A DNA stretch of 41,303 nucleotides. Source: an uncultured Bacilli bacterium. GTDB lineage: Bacteria > Bacillota_I > Bacilli_A > RF39 > UBA660. The DNA is taken from the NCBI GenBank assembly GCA_949440065.1, contig CASRZP010000001.1, positions 1-41,303 of the forward strand, written 5' to 3'. The notes below the pieces were generated by a model. The model was not told where the DNA came from and did no database searches. It saw only the letters and a list, made by a program, of their open reading frames with translations. Of this stretch, positions 4,464 through 11,254 are shown piece after piece. Both the position numbers and the translations under genes were made by a program. How positions within the stretch are numbered: the stretch's first letter is position 1; each line of letters begins with the position of its first letter.

Positions 4464-5564
4464 ATGGCAAATGAAGAAATTTTAGCAATGATAAAGATTG
4501 TTTTAACCACGATGTTATTTTCAATAGTGGTTATGCCGTTAATGAAACGAATTGCTTCTCACATTGGTGCAATTGATATGCCCCGTGAGGATGAAGGAAA
4601 CCGTCATATTCACCATCGCCCTATACCTAAGTTAGGTGGGGTAGGCATTTTTTTAGGTTTTCTTTTTGGATATATGCTTTTTGGAATTCATAGTATTCAA
4701 ATGAACGCCATTTTAATTGGTAGTTTTGTTATAGTTTTAACAGGAATTATCGATGATATTAAGCCCCTTAGGGCATCCCACAAATTGATTGGACAAGTAT
4801 CAGCAGGATGTATTATTGCCTTTTATGGAAAAATTTTATTAACTGATATTACAGCCTTTGGTTTTTCTTTTAACTTTGGCATAATGGCATATCCGCTAAC
4901 TATTTTATTTGTTGTAGCTTGTGTTAATATTATTAATTTGATTGATGGTCTTGATGGTCTTAGTGGAGGAATTTCTTCAATATTTTATTTGACAATTAGT
5001 ATTATTTGTTATTTTCAAGGGCGTTATGGAAGTTTAGAACTTACATTAGCGTTAATTATGTTAGGATCTACGTTGGGCTTTCTGGTACATAATTTTTATC
5101 CAGCAAGTATATTCGCAGGAGATTGTACAATGTTTATGGGATATATCATTGCCGTAATTTCTTTATTGGGATTTAAAGGAACAGCCCTCACTTCATTTTT
5201 TGTTCCTTTATTAATATTAGCAATTCCCATTTTGGATACTTTATTTGCAATTATAAGACGAGTGCTCAAAAGAAAACCAATATTTTCTGCAGATAAAGAA
5301 CATTTACATCACCAATTGTTAGGAATGAATTTTTCTCATCGTAATACTGTACTTATTATTTATGCGATTAACATCTTATTTGCTTTAGCCTCTATATTCT
5401 ATATTTTAAAAGATCCTGTGTTAGGGAAAATTGTATATATTATATTATTTGTCATAGTTGTTTGGTTTGTTTTCTTTACAAGCGTAATCTCTGATAAAAA
5501 CCCAAGGAATATAAAAAAACTTGAAAAAATGGTAAAAGATAAGTTCACAAAGAAGAAAAAGTAA
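4464..5564 (+). CDS. tagO: Glycosyltransferase family 4 polyprenyl-phosphate HexNAc-1-phosphate transferase (TagO/WecA-like)
   Basis: This is a polytopic membrane protein with MraY/WecA motifs (IIDDIKPL, NLIDGLDGL, FAGDCTMFMGY). I prefer the ATG at 4464 because the RBS GAAGGTGA lies 4 nt upstream. The track ORF starts at 4443. Confidence 0.75.
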   Translation: MANEEILAMIKIVLTTMLFSIVVMPLMKRIASHIGAIDMPREDEGNRHIHHRPIPKLGGVGIFLGFLFGYMLFGIHSIQMNAILIGSFVIVLTGIIDDIKPLRASHKLIGQVSAGCIIAFYGKILLTDITAFGFSFNFGIMAYPLTILFVVACVNIINLIDGLDGLSGGISSIFYLTISIICYFQGRYGSLELTLALIMLGSTLGFLVHNFYPASIFAGDCTMFMGYIIAVISLLGFKGTALTSFFVPLLILAIPILDTLFAIIRRVLKRKPIFSADKEHLHHQLLGMNFSHRNTVLIIYAINILFALASIFYILKDPVLGKIVYIILFVIVVWFVFFTSVISDKNPRNIKKLEKMVKDKFTKKKK

Positions 5565-5648
5565 ACAAATAGTAACTTTTTCTTTTTTCTGCTTTGCATT
5601 ATAGGAAAAATATGGTAAAATACTGTACTAATGAAATGAGGGGTAATT

Positions 5649-6383
5649 GTGATTAATTTTATTATTTATGAAGATGAACTTATATTTAAAGAAGAGTACA
5701 TTAAAGTAATTCACCGTGTTATGGGAAGTGATACTAGTGTATACAAGATTCACCATTTTTCTTCTTATACAGAAAACCTAAAGAATTTGATTGAGAATAA
5801 TCGAGAGAAAAAGATTTATATTTTGGATATTGAAGTACCTAATTCTAAATCTGGGATTGATTTAGCCAGACAAATCCGAAATTGTCATGATTGGACAAGT
5901 CAAATTATTATGGTTACTGCTCATGAAGGACTAAAAGAGGGTGATTTTAGGAGTAAGGTACTAATGCTCAATTTTATTTCTAAGTATGATGATTGTTATA
6001 ATGATTTAATGAAAAGTTTGATGTTAGCACACGAAATATTAACATATGATCGACAGCTATCTATTATGCAGGAAGGAGAAATTTATCAGTTTCCTTATGA
6101 TGATATTCAGTATATTGAAAAAGACTTGGATACTGAATATGCCGTCATTCATACGAGCAAAGACTTATTAAGCGTTCGTCAGTCAATGATTAGCTTATTA
6201 AAACAACTAGATAATGATCCACGCTTTATTAGAACACACCGTAGTTGTATTGTGAATGTTTATAATATTAAAAGCGTGGATTTTCTAAATAGTATCATCA
6301 AGTTTAAAAATGGAAAAACAACAGATTTACTGTCACGAAGATATAAACGAGACTTGAAAGAACATCTATTAGTAAAAATCTAA
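5649..6383 (+). CDS. agrA: LytTR-family response regulator (AgrA-like)
   Basis: The receiver domain has an acidic pocket (YEDE), a phospho-acceptor context (ILDIEVP), T (MVTAH) and K (ISKYD). The C-terminal LytTR DNA-binding domain is present (IQYIEKD...FIRTHRSCIVNVYNI). The start is GTG with a GAGGGG RBS. Confidence 0.85.
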   Translation: MINFIIYEDELIFKEEYIKVIHRVMGSDTSVYKIHHFSSYTENLKNLIENNREKKIYILDIEVPNSKSGIDLARQIRNCHDWTSQIIMVTAHEGLKEGDFRSKVLMLNFISKYDDCYNDLMKSLMLAHEILTYDRQLSIMQEGEIYQFPYDDIQYIEKDLDTEYAVIHTSKDLLSVRQSMISLLKQLDNDPRFIRTHRSCIVNVYNIKSVDFLNSIIKFKNGKTTDLLSRRYKRDLKEHLLVKI

Positions 6384-6403
6384 AGAAAGAGGAGTGATTA
6401 GAT

Positions 6404-7702
6404 ATGTTAGATTTTTTGTATGTTTATGTTTGCTCATTATTTAGTAGTTTAGCAATTTATTATGTTGGATATTCATTATGTGGAAATGGAAAGAAATTTT
6501 TTAGACTAAGAAGTGTAATATTATTATTGATTTTAGCCTTTTTGGTTATGGGATTATATGGTTTTATAGATATGAATTTAAGAATTCCATTGTGTTATTA
6601 TCTTTTTACTATGTTTTTTCTATTTTTCTTTAGACAACCGACTACAAATACAATGGTAGCTTCTTTGATTTCTTATGTGATTATCATTATTAGTGATTTT
6701 CCTATCTTACTTGGTTATATTGGTTTAAATTGGCTAACAGGAAATATGTTCAATTTTATTAACGAAACGATTATTGCTAACATTTTAGTAGTATTGATAT
6801 CAATGGCAATTGTTGGTATTTTTAAGAAACAACTAATAATACTATACAATAAGTTATGTAATACAAAAAAGATTGATCTTATTATATTAGCTCCAATGTT
6901 CTTTGTTACTATTGGTACCATTTTCTTTAAAGCAGGTATTAGTGGTTGGATGTATGATGAAACATTGTGGTTAAACTTACTTTTAGTAGTAACTTTTACT
7001 TCAATAACGATATATTTACTAAAAGAACAAATGAATAATGTTACAATGAAAGAAAATTATGAAGAGCTAGGAAAATATGTTAAGAATAGTGAGCAATTAA
7101 TTGAGGAATATAGGATTACGCAACATGAAAATAAAAATCAATTAGTAGTAATTAAAACAATGGTTAATACTAAAAATGAAGAACTTAATGAATATTTAGA
7201 CAACATCATCAAGGAAAAACATACCATAAAATATAAATGGATTACTTCATTAAAAAATATTCCATTAGGTTGTGTTAAGGGGTTAATTCATTTTAAACTA
7301 TTAACTATGGAAGAGTTAGGAATTTCAATTGATATTAATGTAAGTAAAGAAGTAGAAAATTCTATTTTGAAAGATTTCCCAGTAAAAAATTGGGATAGTT
7401 TAAATAAAATTGTAGGTGTATTTTTAGATAATGCAATAGAAGCAACACAAATGTGTAAAGATAAGAAATTTATTATGGATGTTTATTTAGAAAATGATAC
7501 TGTTGTGTTTGAATTTGCTAATACATTTGATGAAGTAAATCAGGATGAAGATAAGTTTATATCAACGAAAGATAAAAATAGAGGACATGGTTTAATTTTA
7601 GTAAGGCGTATAATAAAATCATCTGAAATTTATAGCAATGAAACAAGTATCAAAGGTGGATATTTTATTCAAGTATTAAAAATCAAAAAGCCTACTGATT
7701 AG
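6404..7702 (+). CDS. agrC: AgrC-like (HPK10-type) membrane sensor histidine kinase
   Basis: The first ~200 aa form a polytopic sensor with about 6-7 TM helices. It has an H-box (RITQHENKNQL), an N-box (FLDNAIEA) and a G-box (NRGHGLILV). It lies directly downstream of the LytTR regulator. Confidence 0.8.
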   Translation: MLDFLYVYVCSLFSSLAIYYVGYSLCGNGKKFFRLRSVILLLILAFLVMGLYGFIDMNLRIPLCYYLFTMFFLFFFRQPTTNTMVASLISYVIIIISDFPILLGYIGLNWLTGNMFNFINETIIANILVVLISMAIVGIFKKQLIILYNKLCNTKKIDLIILAPMFFVTIGTIFFKAGISGWMYDETLWLNLLLVVTFTSITIYLLKEQMNNVTMKENYEELGKYVKNSEQLIEEYRITQHENKNQLVVIKTMVNTKNEELNEYLDNIIKEKHTIKYKWITSLKNIPLGCVKGLIHFKLLTMEELGISIDINVSKEVENSILKDFPVKNWDSLNKIVGVFLDNAIEATQMCKDKKFIMDVYLENDTVVFEFANTFDEVNQDEDKFISTKDKNRGHGLILVRRIIKSSEIYSNETSIKGGYFIQVLKIKKPTD

Positions 7703-7770
7703 ATACCCCAAAGTAAGATTGGTGCAATAAATTTTATTAATCGGTAAAAATAATACACCAAGTAAATAGT

Positions 7771-7806
7771 AAATAAAAAAGCTATCGATAAAATAGCCTT
7801 TTTATT
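7771..7806. terminator. Candidate bidirectional terminator between the convergent agrAC-like and agrBD-like operons
   Basis: GCTAT (7781-7785) pairs with ATAGC (7793-7797). An A-run flanks it on the left and a T-run on the right. The stem is short, so this call is weak. Confidence 0.4.
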
Positions 7807-7821
7807 TACCATATCGTGTAA

Positions 7822-7947
7822 TTATTTAGTTAATAAACTCATTGGTGCTTCTGGTTCATCCATAACTACGATAATGCATGCAGCACTTGCAGCACCAGCA
7901 GCTAAGATACCAAGTCCAGTTAAAACTGAAGCTAATAATTTTTTCAT
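7822..7947 (-). CDS. agrD: AgrD-like autoinducing-peptide precursor (41 aa), absent from the ORF track
   Basis: The minus-strand ATG is at 7947 and the TAA stop at 7822-7824. A GGAGG RBS lies 5 nt upstream. The translation is MKKLLASVLTGLGILAAGAASAACIIVVMDEPEAPMSLLTK. It has a hydrophobic/amphipathic leader, a single Cys core, and an acidic Pro-containing tail (DEPEAP). It lies 55 nt downstream of the agrB-like gene. Confidence 0.8.
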   Translation of the reverse strand: MKKLLASVLTGLGILAAGAASAACIIVVMDEPEAPMSLLTK

Positions 7948-8002
7948 ACGTACCTCCTACTATTATTTTTGTTCAAATATTATTTATAAAAATATTTAAA
8001 CC

Positions 8003-8599
8003 TTATTGATAGTTCTTATAATTGTTATAAGGTTGTCCTGATAACTTATAAGATAATGGACAGATCATTACTGCCTCTAAAATCATAGATGTCAATAAAA
8101 TATTCGATAAAAAGTTATCGTGTATCATAAGCAAGATAATCATAAAGATAATTCCCGTTACTGTCGTCATTATTCGATAAAAAACTCTTTTTTTACGATT
8201 TAAAATTGGTCTTTTCTTAGTATCTGCAGGAGCAAATAATAGAAATAGGATTACACAAATACTAGATAAAATAATTTTTATGGGTGTCGTTAGCATCATG
8301 ATCATACACAAATAGGGTAATAAGATAAAAATTAAAGTGGAAAATATCCAACATATCCAGCTTTTTGTAGCATGTAGTCCAAATCCAGTTAATCGTAAAA
8401 GATTGAAGAAAAACATCAATAATAACGTTTCCTTGAGAGAACCAAGTAATAAAGCACATAGCAATATGGTAACAATTTTTGTTAATGTTAGATATATTGC
8501 TTCTAGTCCATATTTAATTTCAAGAAGTTTCTCTTCTGAAAAATCTGGATTAAAGTTTTTAACTAATTTTAATGAATTACCAATTACATACTGCTTCAT
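8003..8599 (-). CDS. agrB: AgrB-family membrane endopeptidase (AIP-processing)
   Basis: This is a polytopic membrane protein with the AgrB signature LRLTGFGLHATKSWICW. The His and Cys are 7 residues apart, matching the spacing of the catalytic H77/C84 pair in S. aureus AgrB. An AAGGAG RBS is present. Confidence 0.85.
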   Translation of the reverse strand: MKQYVIGNSLKLVKNFNPDFSEEKLLEIKYGLEAIYLTLTKIVTILLCALLLGSLKETLLLMFFFNLLRLTGFGLHATKSWICWIFSTLIFILLPYLCMIMMLTTPIKIILSSICVILFLLFAPADTKKRPILNRKKRVFYRIMTTVTGIIFMIILLMIHDNFLSNILLTSMILEAVMICPLSYKLSGQPYNNYKNYQ

Positions 8600-8860
8600 A
8601 ACTTTCTCCTTTATCTTTACATTTACCAGTGTAACATACTAAAAAACCAGAAAATAAAAATCGGGATAAAAGGTGTAATTTATAAAAGATTTTGTAAAAA
8701 GTGTAAAAAAATCAAAATACAAATTACCGTTTAACCTACTTTTTTGACCATTGATATATATTTTTAAAATGCCGTCCATATTTTTGATAAGCTATTTTTA
8801 CCCCGATGATAGTACTAGTAGTGGTTAAGATGAAAAAAAGAGTAAGGAGGTAAGCAAAGT

Positions 8861-9079
8861 ATGACCGGAAAAGTTAAGTGGTTTAATAACGAAAAGGGAT
8901 ATGGCTTTATTGAGTATAAAGAAAATGAAGATATCTTTGTTCATTATTCTGCTATCAATCAAAATGGTTATAAGACGTTATCTGAAGGACAGTATGTTGA
9001 GTTTGTACTACTTGAAACAGCGAAGGGTTATCAAGCAAACAATGTAACTATCATAAAAGATCCTGTTGAGGTAAAATAA
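8861..9079 (+). CDS. csp: Cold-shock protein (CspA family)
   Basis: [14 protein letters not shown] (RNP1) and DIFVHYSAI (RNP2) are present. A long AT-rich 5' leader is typical of csp genes. Confidence 0.95.
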
Positions 9080-9186
9080 CAAATCTAAAAAAATAAAATT
9101 TTTGAGGTAAATTAAGTAGTAGGGCTACAAATACAAGTAGCTTTTTTATTTGTCCTATGTTATAATAAATTTGGGAGGTTGATGTT

Positions 9187-9717
9187 ATGCAACTAATTAT
9201 TCGAGGAGACAAAATCGAAGTTACAAAAGCAATGAACGATTATGTCAGTGAAAAGATCCAAAAATTAGAAAAGTATTTGGAAGATGCCAACGAAGTAAGA
9301 GCCAATATTTTAATTAAAATAAATGGCTTAAAGCAAAAAGTAGAAATAACGATTCCCTTAAAGTCTGTTATCTTAAGAGCAGAGGCACAAGAAAATGATT
9401 TTTATACTGCAGTAGATTTAATTATTGATAAATTAGAGCGACAAATTAGAAAGAACAAAACAAAGTTAGCAAATCGAGCAATGAAGTTCAATAAGAAGGA
9501 GTTTATTATTGATTCTATCGAGATGCTTGAAGAAGAAAATGATGATATGATTCGTAGAAAAATCATTGAAATGAAACCGATGAATGAAGAGGAAGCTATT
9601 TTACAAATGGAGTTATTGAATCATCAATTTTATTTATATAAGGATGCTACTACCAATAAGCCAATGGTGGTATATAAACGGAATGATGGCGGATATGGTA
9701 TTATAGAAACTGAATAA
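9187..9717 (+). CDS. hpf: Ribosome hibernation-promoting factor, long form (HPF/YvyD)
   Basis: The N-terminal S30AE domain is present (MQLIIRGDKIEVTKAMNDYVSEKIQKLEKYL). The C-terminal dimerisation domain is also present (KPMNEEEAILQMELLNHQFYLYKD...VVYKRNDGGYGIIE). Confidence 0.9.
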   Translation: MQLIIRGDKIEVTKAMNDYVSEKIQKLEKYLEDANEVRANILIKINGLKQKVEITIPLKSVILRAEAQENDFYTAVDLIIDKLERQIRKNKTKLANRAMKFNKKEFIIDSIEMLEEENDDMIRRKIIEMKPMNEEEAILQMELLNHQFYLYKDATTNKPMVVYKRNDGGYGIIETE

Positions 9718-9838
9718 AAAGAGGTTGAGGTAAATGGATATCAAAAAATTAATTGATAGGATACCCTTTACTAAGAAAAACCTAGTTAACCAAAAATTAA
9801 CTAAGGGGATAGCTTATAAAGTAAAACCCTTGTTACAT

Positions 9839-9846
9839 AAGAATGA
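9839..9846. repeat. Left copy of the 8-bp target-site duplication AAGAATGA
   Basis: It is identical to 11255-11262 and lies immediately outside the left terminal inverted repeat of the IS. Confidence 0.8.
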
Positions 9847-11254
9847 GGTTCTTTGTCAAATAGTGTTGGTAAACAATAAATTTGATAAATGAATTGATTA
9901 TGTAGAGTGATTTTTAATCACTCTTTTATAATGCCTTTTATTAAGAATATACGAGCAACGAAATGTTCATATTTTCTATAGCCAAAAGCAATTCTTTTAA
10001 TGCATTTAATTAAATTATTCGTTCCTTCAATAACTCCATTATTAATATCATATTTGAATGAATTTTCTATATATTTTATATTTTCTTTGTATAATTTTAA
10101 AACTTGAATCATTTTTGGAGATAAATATTTATTTTGATTAAATGTTATTGATTTGAATTTGTTAAAGTCTTTTTCTTTTAATGAATTGATTAATCCTTGA
10201 TAGCACTCATAGGTAGCCTTTAAAGTGAAGTTAGTATTTATTAGGTATTGTACAATTTGCTTTTGAGATATTTCTTTTCCTCAGATAAGTCATTTTCCTT
10301 TTTGACAATTAAATTCCAGTAATCTTTTAATTTATTGTAATTAGGATTTGACTTATTGCATAGCTTAACTCTAGTTGAATTTAAAGCAACATAAGCTTGA
10401 AGCACGATATGAAATCTGTCTATTGATATATCTGCATTTTTAAATAATTTCTTAACAAGATAAATATAGCCAGAATAAAAGACGCTAGATATATGCTTCA
10501 CTTGATCTCTTTCCTGTTTAGAATATCGTTTAAAATATTTTTCCAAATCTCTAGACTTTCTAGAATCGTTAATATCAAATATATTGCCATTTTCATTATC
10601 AGTAATAATAAAAGCCATCTTACCTTTAGTATCCTTGGTAGCCTTAAATTCATCCCAGTTCATGGATTTAGGTAAATGAGGATGTCTTAAAACGGTGCGA
10701 GAAGATATTTCGGTAAGCTTTCTGTCTATTTTGGAAACAGAAACGTCCAATCTTTTTGAAATGTCTTTTTCACTTTGCTTTTCCATAAGTTCAAGATTAA
10801 TTTGAAGTTCTAAATTATTAGATTAGTCTCAGCAATAAAAGTGTTATTACAATTCTTACAAAAGAATCTTTGCTTATGAAGAATTAATAAAGAATAGCAA
10901 TTGGAAATTTTAGGAATTTTAATTTTACAATTTTTTCTAAAACCTCATTTAATAATGTCATTAGAAGATTGATTAACACATCCACAGCAAGGACAATAAT
11001 CAGGTATGTAAGTTAAAAATCCTTCAATAATCTTATAATTTCTATTTTTAATCTTTTTATCAGTGATTTTATTAGAAATAAAAATATTTTTGTCTTTAAT
11101 ATTTAATAAATTTAATATATAATCATTAGTGTACATAGATTTGAATCCTTTCAATGTTTTATTAGTCAATTACATTGTATCAAATCTTATGTACTTTTTT
11201 ATTAAATAAAAATAGTATTAGTGAATACTCACCAGCACTATTTATAATACAACC
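9847..11254 (-). mobile_element. ISL3-family insertion sequence (1408 bp), transposase inactivated
   Basis: The left terminal repeat is GGTTCTTTGTCAAATAGTGTTGGTAA (9847-). The reverse complement of the right end is GGTTGTATTATAAATAGTGCTGGTGA (-11254). They match at 19 of 26 positions. The element is flanked by a perfect 8-bp direct repeat. Its size and the 8-bp duplication fit the ISL3 family. The internal ORF fragments are ISL3-like. Confidence 0.8.
9918..11136 (-). pseudogene. ISL3-family transposase, disrupted by one in-frame stop and at least two frameshifts
   Basis: Three fragments are recognisable. The N-terminal zinc-finger part contains YIPDYCPCCGC. The middle part contains WDEFKATKDTKGKMAFIITD...IDRFHIVLQ. 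The C-terminal part contains NGVIEGTNNLIKCIKRIAFGYRKYEHFVARIFL. There is an in-frame TGA at 10945-10947. Frame changes occur near 10810 and near 10245. Confidence 0.8.

Follow-up and report, generated by a model that had tools for sequence, protein, structure and literature searches.

The window analysed here is a 41,303-nt stretch of contig CASRZP010000001.1 (assembly GCA_949440065.1) from an uncultured Bacilli bacterium, represented by a 1.33-Mb metagenome-assembled genome with 30% GC in 153 contigs. It contains a locus that very probably encodes functional agr-type quorum sensing by means of an autoinducing peptide (AIP) and that, as far as sequence comparison can tell, is inherited vertically in a family of uncultured, low-GC Bacilli with small genomes (0.8-1.4 Mb), the relatives having been deposited as uncultured Tenericutes, Erysipelotrichaceae or Bacilli bacteria. 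This reading is carried by the gene content, the catalytic residues, purifying selection, and the conserved layout and terminator of the locus, which consists of four intact open reading frames (ORFs):

5649-6383, plus strand: agrA, LytTR-family response regulator of 244 amino acids, with a GTG start (ATG in the same-genus genome G001) and phospho-acceptor Asp60.
6404-7702, plus strand: agrC, HPK10-type sensor histidine kinase of 432 amino acids, with H-box His241 and N and G boxes.
7822-7947, minus strand: agrD, AIP precursor of 41 amino acids, MKKLLASVLTGLGILAAGAASAACIIVVMDEPEAPMSLLTK, with a predicted ring Cys24-Met29 and recognition tail Asp30-Lys41.
8003-8599, minus strand: agrB, membrane cysteine endopeptidase/cyclase of 198 amino acids, with catalytic His76 and Cys83.

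The assignment to agr is made because the four proteins match agr families and because the best solved relatives of AgrC and AgrA are the S. aureus (Staphylococcus aureus) proteins of the same names. AgrB matches the Pfam family AgrB at 8e-31 and is the sole AgrB above the Pfam cut-off in the genome; its H-x6-C motif (H76/C83) is invariant in 23 aligned orthologues, and a sequence search for relatives of AgrB with a known structure found none. AgrC has at least five hydrophobic, transmembrane-like segments within residues 1-206 in a crude hydropathy scan, followed by a GHKL ATPase domain (HATPase_c_5, 7.5e-10). Among the NCBIfam models it matches AgrC best, in an end-to-end alignment of residues 33-423; the best match in PDB is 6e52 (3e-12), the kinase module of S. 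aureus AgrC, with the H-box of which QHENKNQL (H241) is aligned. In AgrA, the LytTR domain is found at 8.9e-18, the best NCBIfam match is AgrA, and the best solved relative is the LytTR domain of S. aureus AgrA (1.3e-6). The receiver domain of AgrA is weak, at 28.1 bits slightly below the cut-off of 30.2, with Asp60 and the acidic pocket conserved. Across about 20 orthologues, His241 of AgrC (HExKNQL), Asp60 of AgrA and His76/Cys83 of AgrB are all invariant.

The initial annotation had described all four agr functions, placed regulator before kinase in two convergent units unlike the single agrBDCA operon of S. aureus, noted the His-x6-Cys spacing of AgrB and the HPK10-type H-box of the kinase, and set the locus in core sequence between tagO and csp/hpf. 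The ORF positions and strands, the profile searches and the alignments agree with it in each of these respects, the flanking genes being identified by their profiles as tagO (Glycos_transf_4/WecA-like) on one side and csp and hpf on the other. It had also seen no RNAIII-like element, and an Rfam search of positions 5300-9900 likewise returned zero family matches, RNAIII included.

The deduced AgrD has a hydrophobic leader, a Cys nucleophile and an acidic tail with an E-P-x-x-P motif, and is encoded directly after agrB. The spacing nucleophile-x5-[D/E]-E-P-x-x-P holds across about 35 genera of the family, the nucleophile being mostly Cys, with Ser in three genera and Thr in two. The AgrD of the window reads C-IIVVM-DEP, and those of canonical B-D-C-A control loci read C-x4-Y-E-P-x-x-P. 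If AgrB cleaves directly before the conserved acidic residue, the AIP is predicted to contain a six-residue thiolactone ring, CIIVVM; six-membered AIP rings are the rarer type, known from systems like that of Clostridium acetobutylicum (PMC10301443). The predicted ring sequences are hypervariable between genera, which suggests species-specific signalling. Ser at the nucleophile position was seen in loci L034, L062 and L079, and Thr, in a core without Cys, in L037 (G009, 4836-4964) and L038 (G024, 4816-4935); we know of no description of Thr-lactone AIPs. One further locus, L019, has two tandem agrD genes (5514-5636 and 5980-6102) after one agrB, with the rings CIVLWI and CMLLWL.

Comparison with related genomes revealed the same gene order at the same site throughout the family. 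Two samples of family genomes contained AgrB in 16 of 24 and in 27 of 34 cases, respectively, versus approximately 25 of 265 other Bacilli. All family loci on sufficiently long contigs (about 33, from nearly as many genera) read agrA-agrC> <agrD-agrB, followed by divergent csp-hpf, and one genome from a second family of the same taxonomic order shows this arrangement as well; tagO and mreB are often located on the far side. The AgrC sequences of the family (n=33) form a single clade with support 99/96. About 20 AgrB loci from other families of Bacilli include no convergent one: canonical B-D-C-A order is found in five, co-directional A-C-B order in four or five and a divergent layout in one, the remainder being orphan or odd loci. 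Where family genomes lack AgrB, decay is seen at the same site in the chromosome, and the reduced loci of the family are as follows:

G022 (L086): tagO, orphan agrA, csp and hpf.
G012 (L090): agrA-agrC, csp and hpf, without agrBD; possibly an eavesdropper.
G021 and G008: tagO directly adjoins hpf, agr and csp being gone.
G198 (L069): agrC-agrB, without agrA.

In the window itself, the ratios of nonsynonymous to synonymous substitution rates (dN/dS) relative to G001 are low (0.012 for agrA, 0.13 for agrC and 0.084 for agrB), and the AgrD proteins are 100% identical. Because the site and the gene order are shared, decay cases are found at that site, AgrC forms a single clade and dN/dS is low, these comparisons indicate that the ancestor of the family already had the agr locus, that the locus has since been passed on vertically and lost several times, and that it is under selection in the present genome. 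The synonymous divergence of agrA from G001 is itself high (dS about 2.3 for window positions 5649-6383 versus 6503-7237 of L022, at 95% protein identity), compared with 0.1-0.8 for its neighbours; saturation, noise or recombination of the segment may account for this.

The convergent arrangement, which the initial annotation had set apart from the single-operon layout of S. aureus, is thus the norm in the approximately 33 family loci, and it recurs outside the family. A protein search for further AgrB loci yielded close members of the family only. In our comparison with Clostridia, which covered plasmids, the same agrB-agrD> <kinase-regulator order with the regulator first was found on pCEST-001C of C. 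estertheticum, pCM022-183 of C. tagluense and pB6464 of Alkaliphilus sp. B6464, annotated in RefSeq as AgrB, AgrD> <GHKL kinase, LytTR regulator, with stop codons 6-18 nt apart. These three loci also share the AgrD spacing (C/S-x5-E-E-P-x-x-P, with a ...P(K/D)SLLKK tail). They differ in being plasmid-borne and in Clostridia, in AgrB sequence (about 31-34% identical to that of the window) and in their surroundings, which are radical-SAM/ABC genes and not tagO or csp-hpf, and the AgrC tree does not place them as the specific sister of the family. Further clostridial plasmids carry other agr gene orders. The convergent layout is a common though rarely discussed variant: seen in Clostridia too, it is not unique, does not amount to new biology and gives no evidence of a novel mechanism. 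We found no paper in the literature describing a convergent form of agr.

With the S. aureus system the locus shares four protein functions and the catalytic residues, the AgrC and LytTR structures being the best matches, and autoinduction presumably follows the same logic. S. aureus differs in having a single co-directional B-D-C-A operon transcribed from P2, a divergent P3-RNAIII effector and a five-residue ring, whereas in the window agrA precedes agrC, the two units converge, the ring is predicted to have six residues, and nothing RNAIII-like was matched. C. acetobutylicum has split agrBD and agrCA operons and a six-membered AIP, R6T0 (PMC10301443), and is thereby similar to the window in its separate signal and receptor operons and in the predicted six-residue thiolactone ring. 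In that species, however, the kinase comes first (agrBD, then agrCA) and a LanM-like effector gene lies immediately downstream of the cluster (PMC10301443). The operons of the window are convergent with the regulator first, and no LanM-sized ORF adjoins the agr cluster, its neighbours being tagO and csp/hpf. By gene order, the agr2 locus of C. difficile is also comparable: it reads regulator, kinase, peptide, processing gene ('agrACDB'), reversed relative to S. aureus, and has been treated as a single transcript, since polar effects on the whole set of four genes were expected from a transposon insertion in agrA2 (PMC3754575). All four agr2 genes were under-represented in a C. difficile agrA mutant.

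The two units of the window meet at one strong inverted repeat:

7766-7812, both strands: shared bidirectional intrinsic-terminator-like hairpin (A-run, 16-21 bp stem, T-run; arms at 7766-7785 and 7793-7812), ending both units.

The initial annotation had noticed this shared element, and its fold is strong on both strands: -13.2 kcal/mol on the plus strand (z -5.3) and -21.8 kcal/mol on the minus strand (z -8.8). In both directions the hairpin is preceded by an A-run and followed by a T-run, and it therefore has the signature of a bidirectional intrinsic terminator. In most loci of the family the stop codons of agrC and agrD lie 12-50 nt apart, and one strong hairpin with A/T runs fills that gap, often extending into the Lys-rich end of agrC. 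At such distances any read-through would at once produce antisense RNA, and the convergent layout is strictly conserved; convergence could then be regulatory in itself, with polymerase collision or 3'-end pairing making signal production and sensing mutually repressive; the initial annotation had put forward an antisense or collision coupling between the two. We consider this improbable, since a bidirectional terminator at nearly every junction restricts the overlap to the hairpin itself, and the one in the window is strong in both directions. Convergent genes in compact, reduced genomes frequently share terminators, so a special function need not be assumed. The conserved junction terminator rather suggests that the operons are insulated from each other and not coupled by collision or antisense transcription. 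Three further features of the junction were recorded. At window positions 7703-7790 the agrC stop codon and the hairpin are separated by about 85 nt that have no counterpart in G001, where the terminator hairpin overlaps the agrC stop codon. An ORF of 37 amino acids on the minus strand (7699-7812) was rejected as a gene and is probably spurious, having no family match and no counterpart in G001 and overlapping the terminator. In L062 (G061) a transposase-like insertion of 1.7 kb separates agrD and agrC, with one copy of the duplicated hairpin AAACCCTTTTATAGGGTTT on either side.

The additional stretch of about 85 nt before the terminator relative to G001, together with the partial losses in relatives (orphan agrA in G022, agrAC only in G012, no agrA in G198), might be taken to mean that the locus is a decaying remnant and that signalling has been lost in this genome. 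Such decay is highly improbable here: all four frames are intact with their catalytic residues and show purifying selection relative to G001, and exactly the same locus was found again on independent metagenome contigs.

The candidate control elements lie upstream of each unit, with the csp and hpf genes on the far side of agrB:

5593-5621, plus strand: candidate sigma-70-type promoter of agrA-agrC (TTTGCA, 17 nt, TG-extended TAAAAT).
8600-8860: divergent control region of agrB (minus) and csp (plus), 261 bp, the divergent arrangement being kept across the family.
8724-8753, minus strand: candidate AgrA (LytTR) box of imperfect 9-bp direct repeats, CAATGGTCA-N12-AAACGGTAA, in the direction of agrB.
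8861-9717, plus strand: csp (72 amino acids) and hpf (176 amino acids), conserved divergent neighbours that may be an output of the system.

The candidate promoter of agrA-agrC was found by a pattern scan; its block is near-identical in G001, and no LytTR-type repeats were found near it. The candidate AgrA box has the geometry of LytTR sites, with a 12-bp spacer, and is located 125 nt from the ATG of agrB and 107 nt from that of csp. Both repeats are kept in G001, where the intervening spacer differs, and genus g11 has a similar pair, AATGGTA-N-TGGTAATT, at an equal distance from agrB, for which about 0.045 matches are expected by shuffling. The box nevertheless is a weak candidate on this evidence.

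The initial annotation had left the output regulon undefined and listed csp as the neighbour on the far side. The position of csp stands, but its role may have been undersold, as the divergence of agrB and csp is kept family-wide with a candidate AgrA box between them; csp-hpf is a plausible but putative first target. In its strongest form, csp-hpf would be a direct output comparable to P3/RNAIII, phosphorylated AgrA bound in the 261-bp spacer activating transcription in both directions. The family supplies arguments for such a role: wherever both lie on the contig, agrB and csp(-hpf) point away from each other in essentially all family loci, and the two genomes without any agr also lack csp at this site, tagO being beside hpf. 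Yet synteny in reduced genomes can last without a regulatory link, csp-hpf is retained in G012, which has lost agrBD, and in G022, which has lost agrBD and agrC, and the box at 8724-8753 is oriented to agrB. Moreover, a third of the family loci carry perfect Spo0A boxes in the spacer, so another regulator may control csp. On balance, direct control of csp-hpf by AgrA is unlikely, and it is distinctly doubtful that csp-hpf forms a built-in, protein-coding counterpart of P3/RNAIII whose regulon is extended by two orphan AgrA paralogues found elsewhere in the genome.

The perfect Spo0A box TTCGACA occurs 14 times in the agrB-csp spacers versus 0.8 expected, in 12 of 37 family loci and near-always in the same orientation (for example in L025, L027, L036, L061, L065, L067, L069, L071, L074, L075 and L080). 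None was found in the agrB-csp spacer of the window or in that of G001; the genome of the window encodes Spo0A (C153). Just downstream of hpf, at 9918-10786, there are fragments of an ISL3-family transposase, and the same fragments (Pfam DDE_Tnp_ISL3) are present in L098, an independent metagenome contig.

Several results weigh against a functional agr system as outlined here. AgrD matches TIGR04223 barely, at 19.7 bits versus a cut-off of 19, and the size of the ring depends on the assumed cleavage site right before the conserved Asp. The NCBIfam scores of AgrA (49.9 versus a cut-off of 400) and AgrC (68.9 versus 500) are far short of equivalog level, and these proteins are therefore not orthologues of the staphylococcal ones. 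The AgrA sequence is scarcely nearer to AgrA (1.3e-6) than to ComE (5.9e-6). As for control, the sigma-70-like promoter drawn for agrB is not kept in G001, and the repeats of the candidate AgrA box agree at only 6 of 9 positions and are missing in most genera. A scan for pairs of 9-mers at 20-22 bp spacing yielded no family-wide LytTR consensus, most counts being near the shuffled expectation, and a genome-wide pattern scan with the candidate box gave matches at chance level and no regulon.

The similarity of AgrA to ComE, and the presence of three LytTR regulators in the genome including that of the locus, would also fit a system of another kind, in which kinase and regulator would form a non-agr LytTR pair of the ComDE/PlnBCD bacteriocin type, with the gene for their peptide elsewhere, and agrBD would be unrelated genes nearby. 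The initial annotation had named a placement of this sort by profile searches as what would speak against agr; in those searches kinase and regulator match AgrC and AgrA best. The kinase can be aligned over its full length with both the AgrC model and the solved S. aureus AgrC, and the four genes stay together in about 33 family loci and on the clostridial plasmids. No ComC-type double-glycine peptide or ABC exporter is present among the ORFs adjacent to the locus. The other two LytTR regulators are AgrA-like orphans, at C11:11420-12223 and C23:6223-7029 (both minus strand; 37% and 29% identical to AgrA, respectively), and no kinase or peptide genes were found beside them. A non-agr LytTR system is largely refuted by these data and hardly tenable. 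The two orphan paralogues may be extra outputs of AgrC; the C23 copy adjoins a large serine-recombinase-like gene.

For the agr-type system, a mechanism can be proposed by homology to S. aureus and clostridial agr, from which we infer the peptide structure, phosphorelay, autoinduction and regulon. AgrB, through His76/Cys83, would cut off the acidic C-terminal tail of AgrD (Asp30-Lys41) and join Cys24 to the newly formed C-terminus, Met29, by a thiolactone, to give the six-residue ring C-I-I-V-V-M. Once the hydrophobic leader is gone, the N-terminal tail of the AIP would be short or absent, a small-residue A-S-A motif being located before Ala23-Cys24. The secreted peptide would be sensed by the polytopic N-terminal domain of AgrC, which is expected to autophosphorylate on His241 and to pass the phosphate to Asp60 of AgrA. 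Phosphorylated AgrA would then bind the direct repeats in the agrB-csp spacer and increase agrBD transcription in a positive feedback. The agrAC unit would be transcribed from its own sigma-70-like promoter, which is without repeats; therefore the receptor half is probably constitutive and only the signal half auto-induced. Both transcripts would end at the bidirectional terminator at 7766-7812, which would insulate the two units.

The analysis points to cyclic-peptide quorum sensing as a trait that a whole family of uncultured, gut-type Bacilli has conserved and passed on vertically. In the very small genomes of this family most regulatory systems have been lost. The predicted peptide with its CIIVVM ring offers a concrete handle with which to study, and even cultivate, such organisms. 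The most interesting question concerns csp-hpf as a direct agr output, which, if true, would tie high cell density to an RNA chaperone and to ribosome hibernation.

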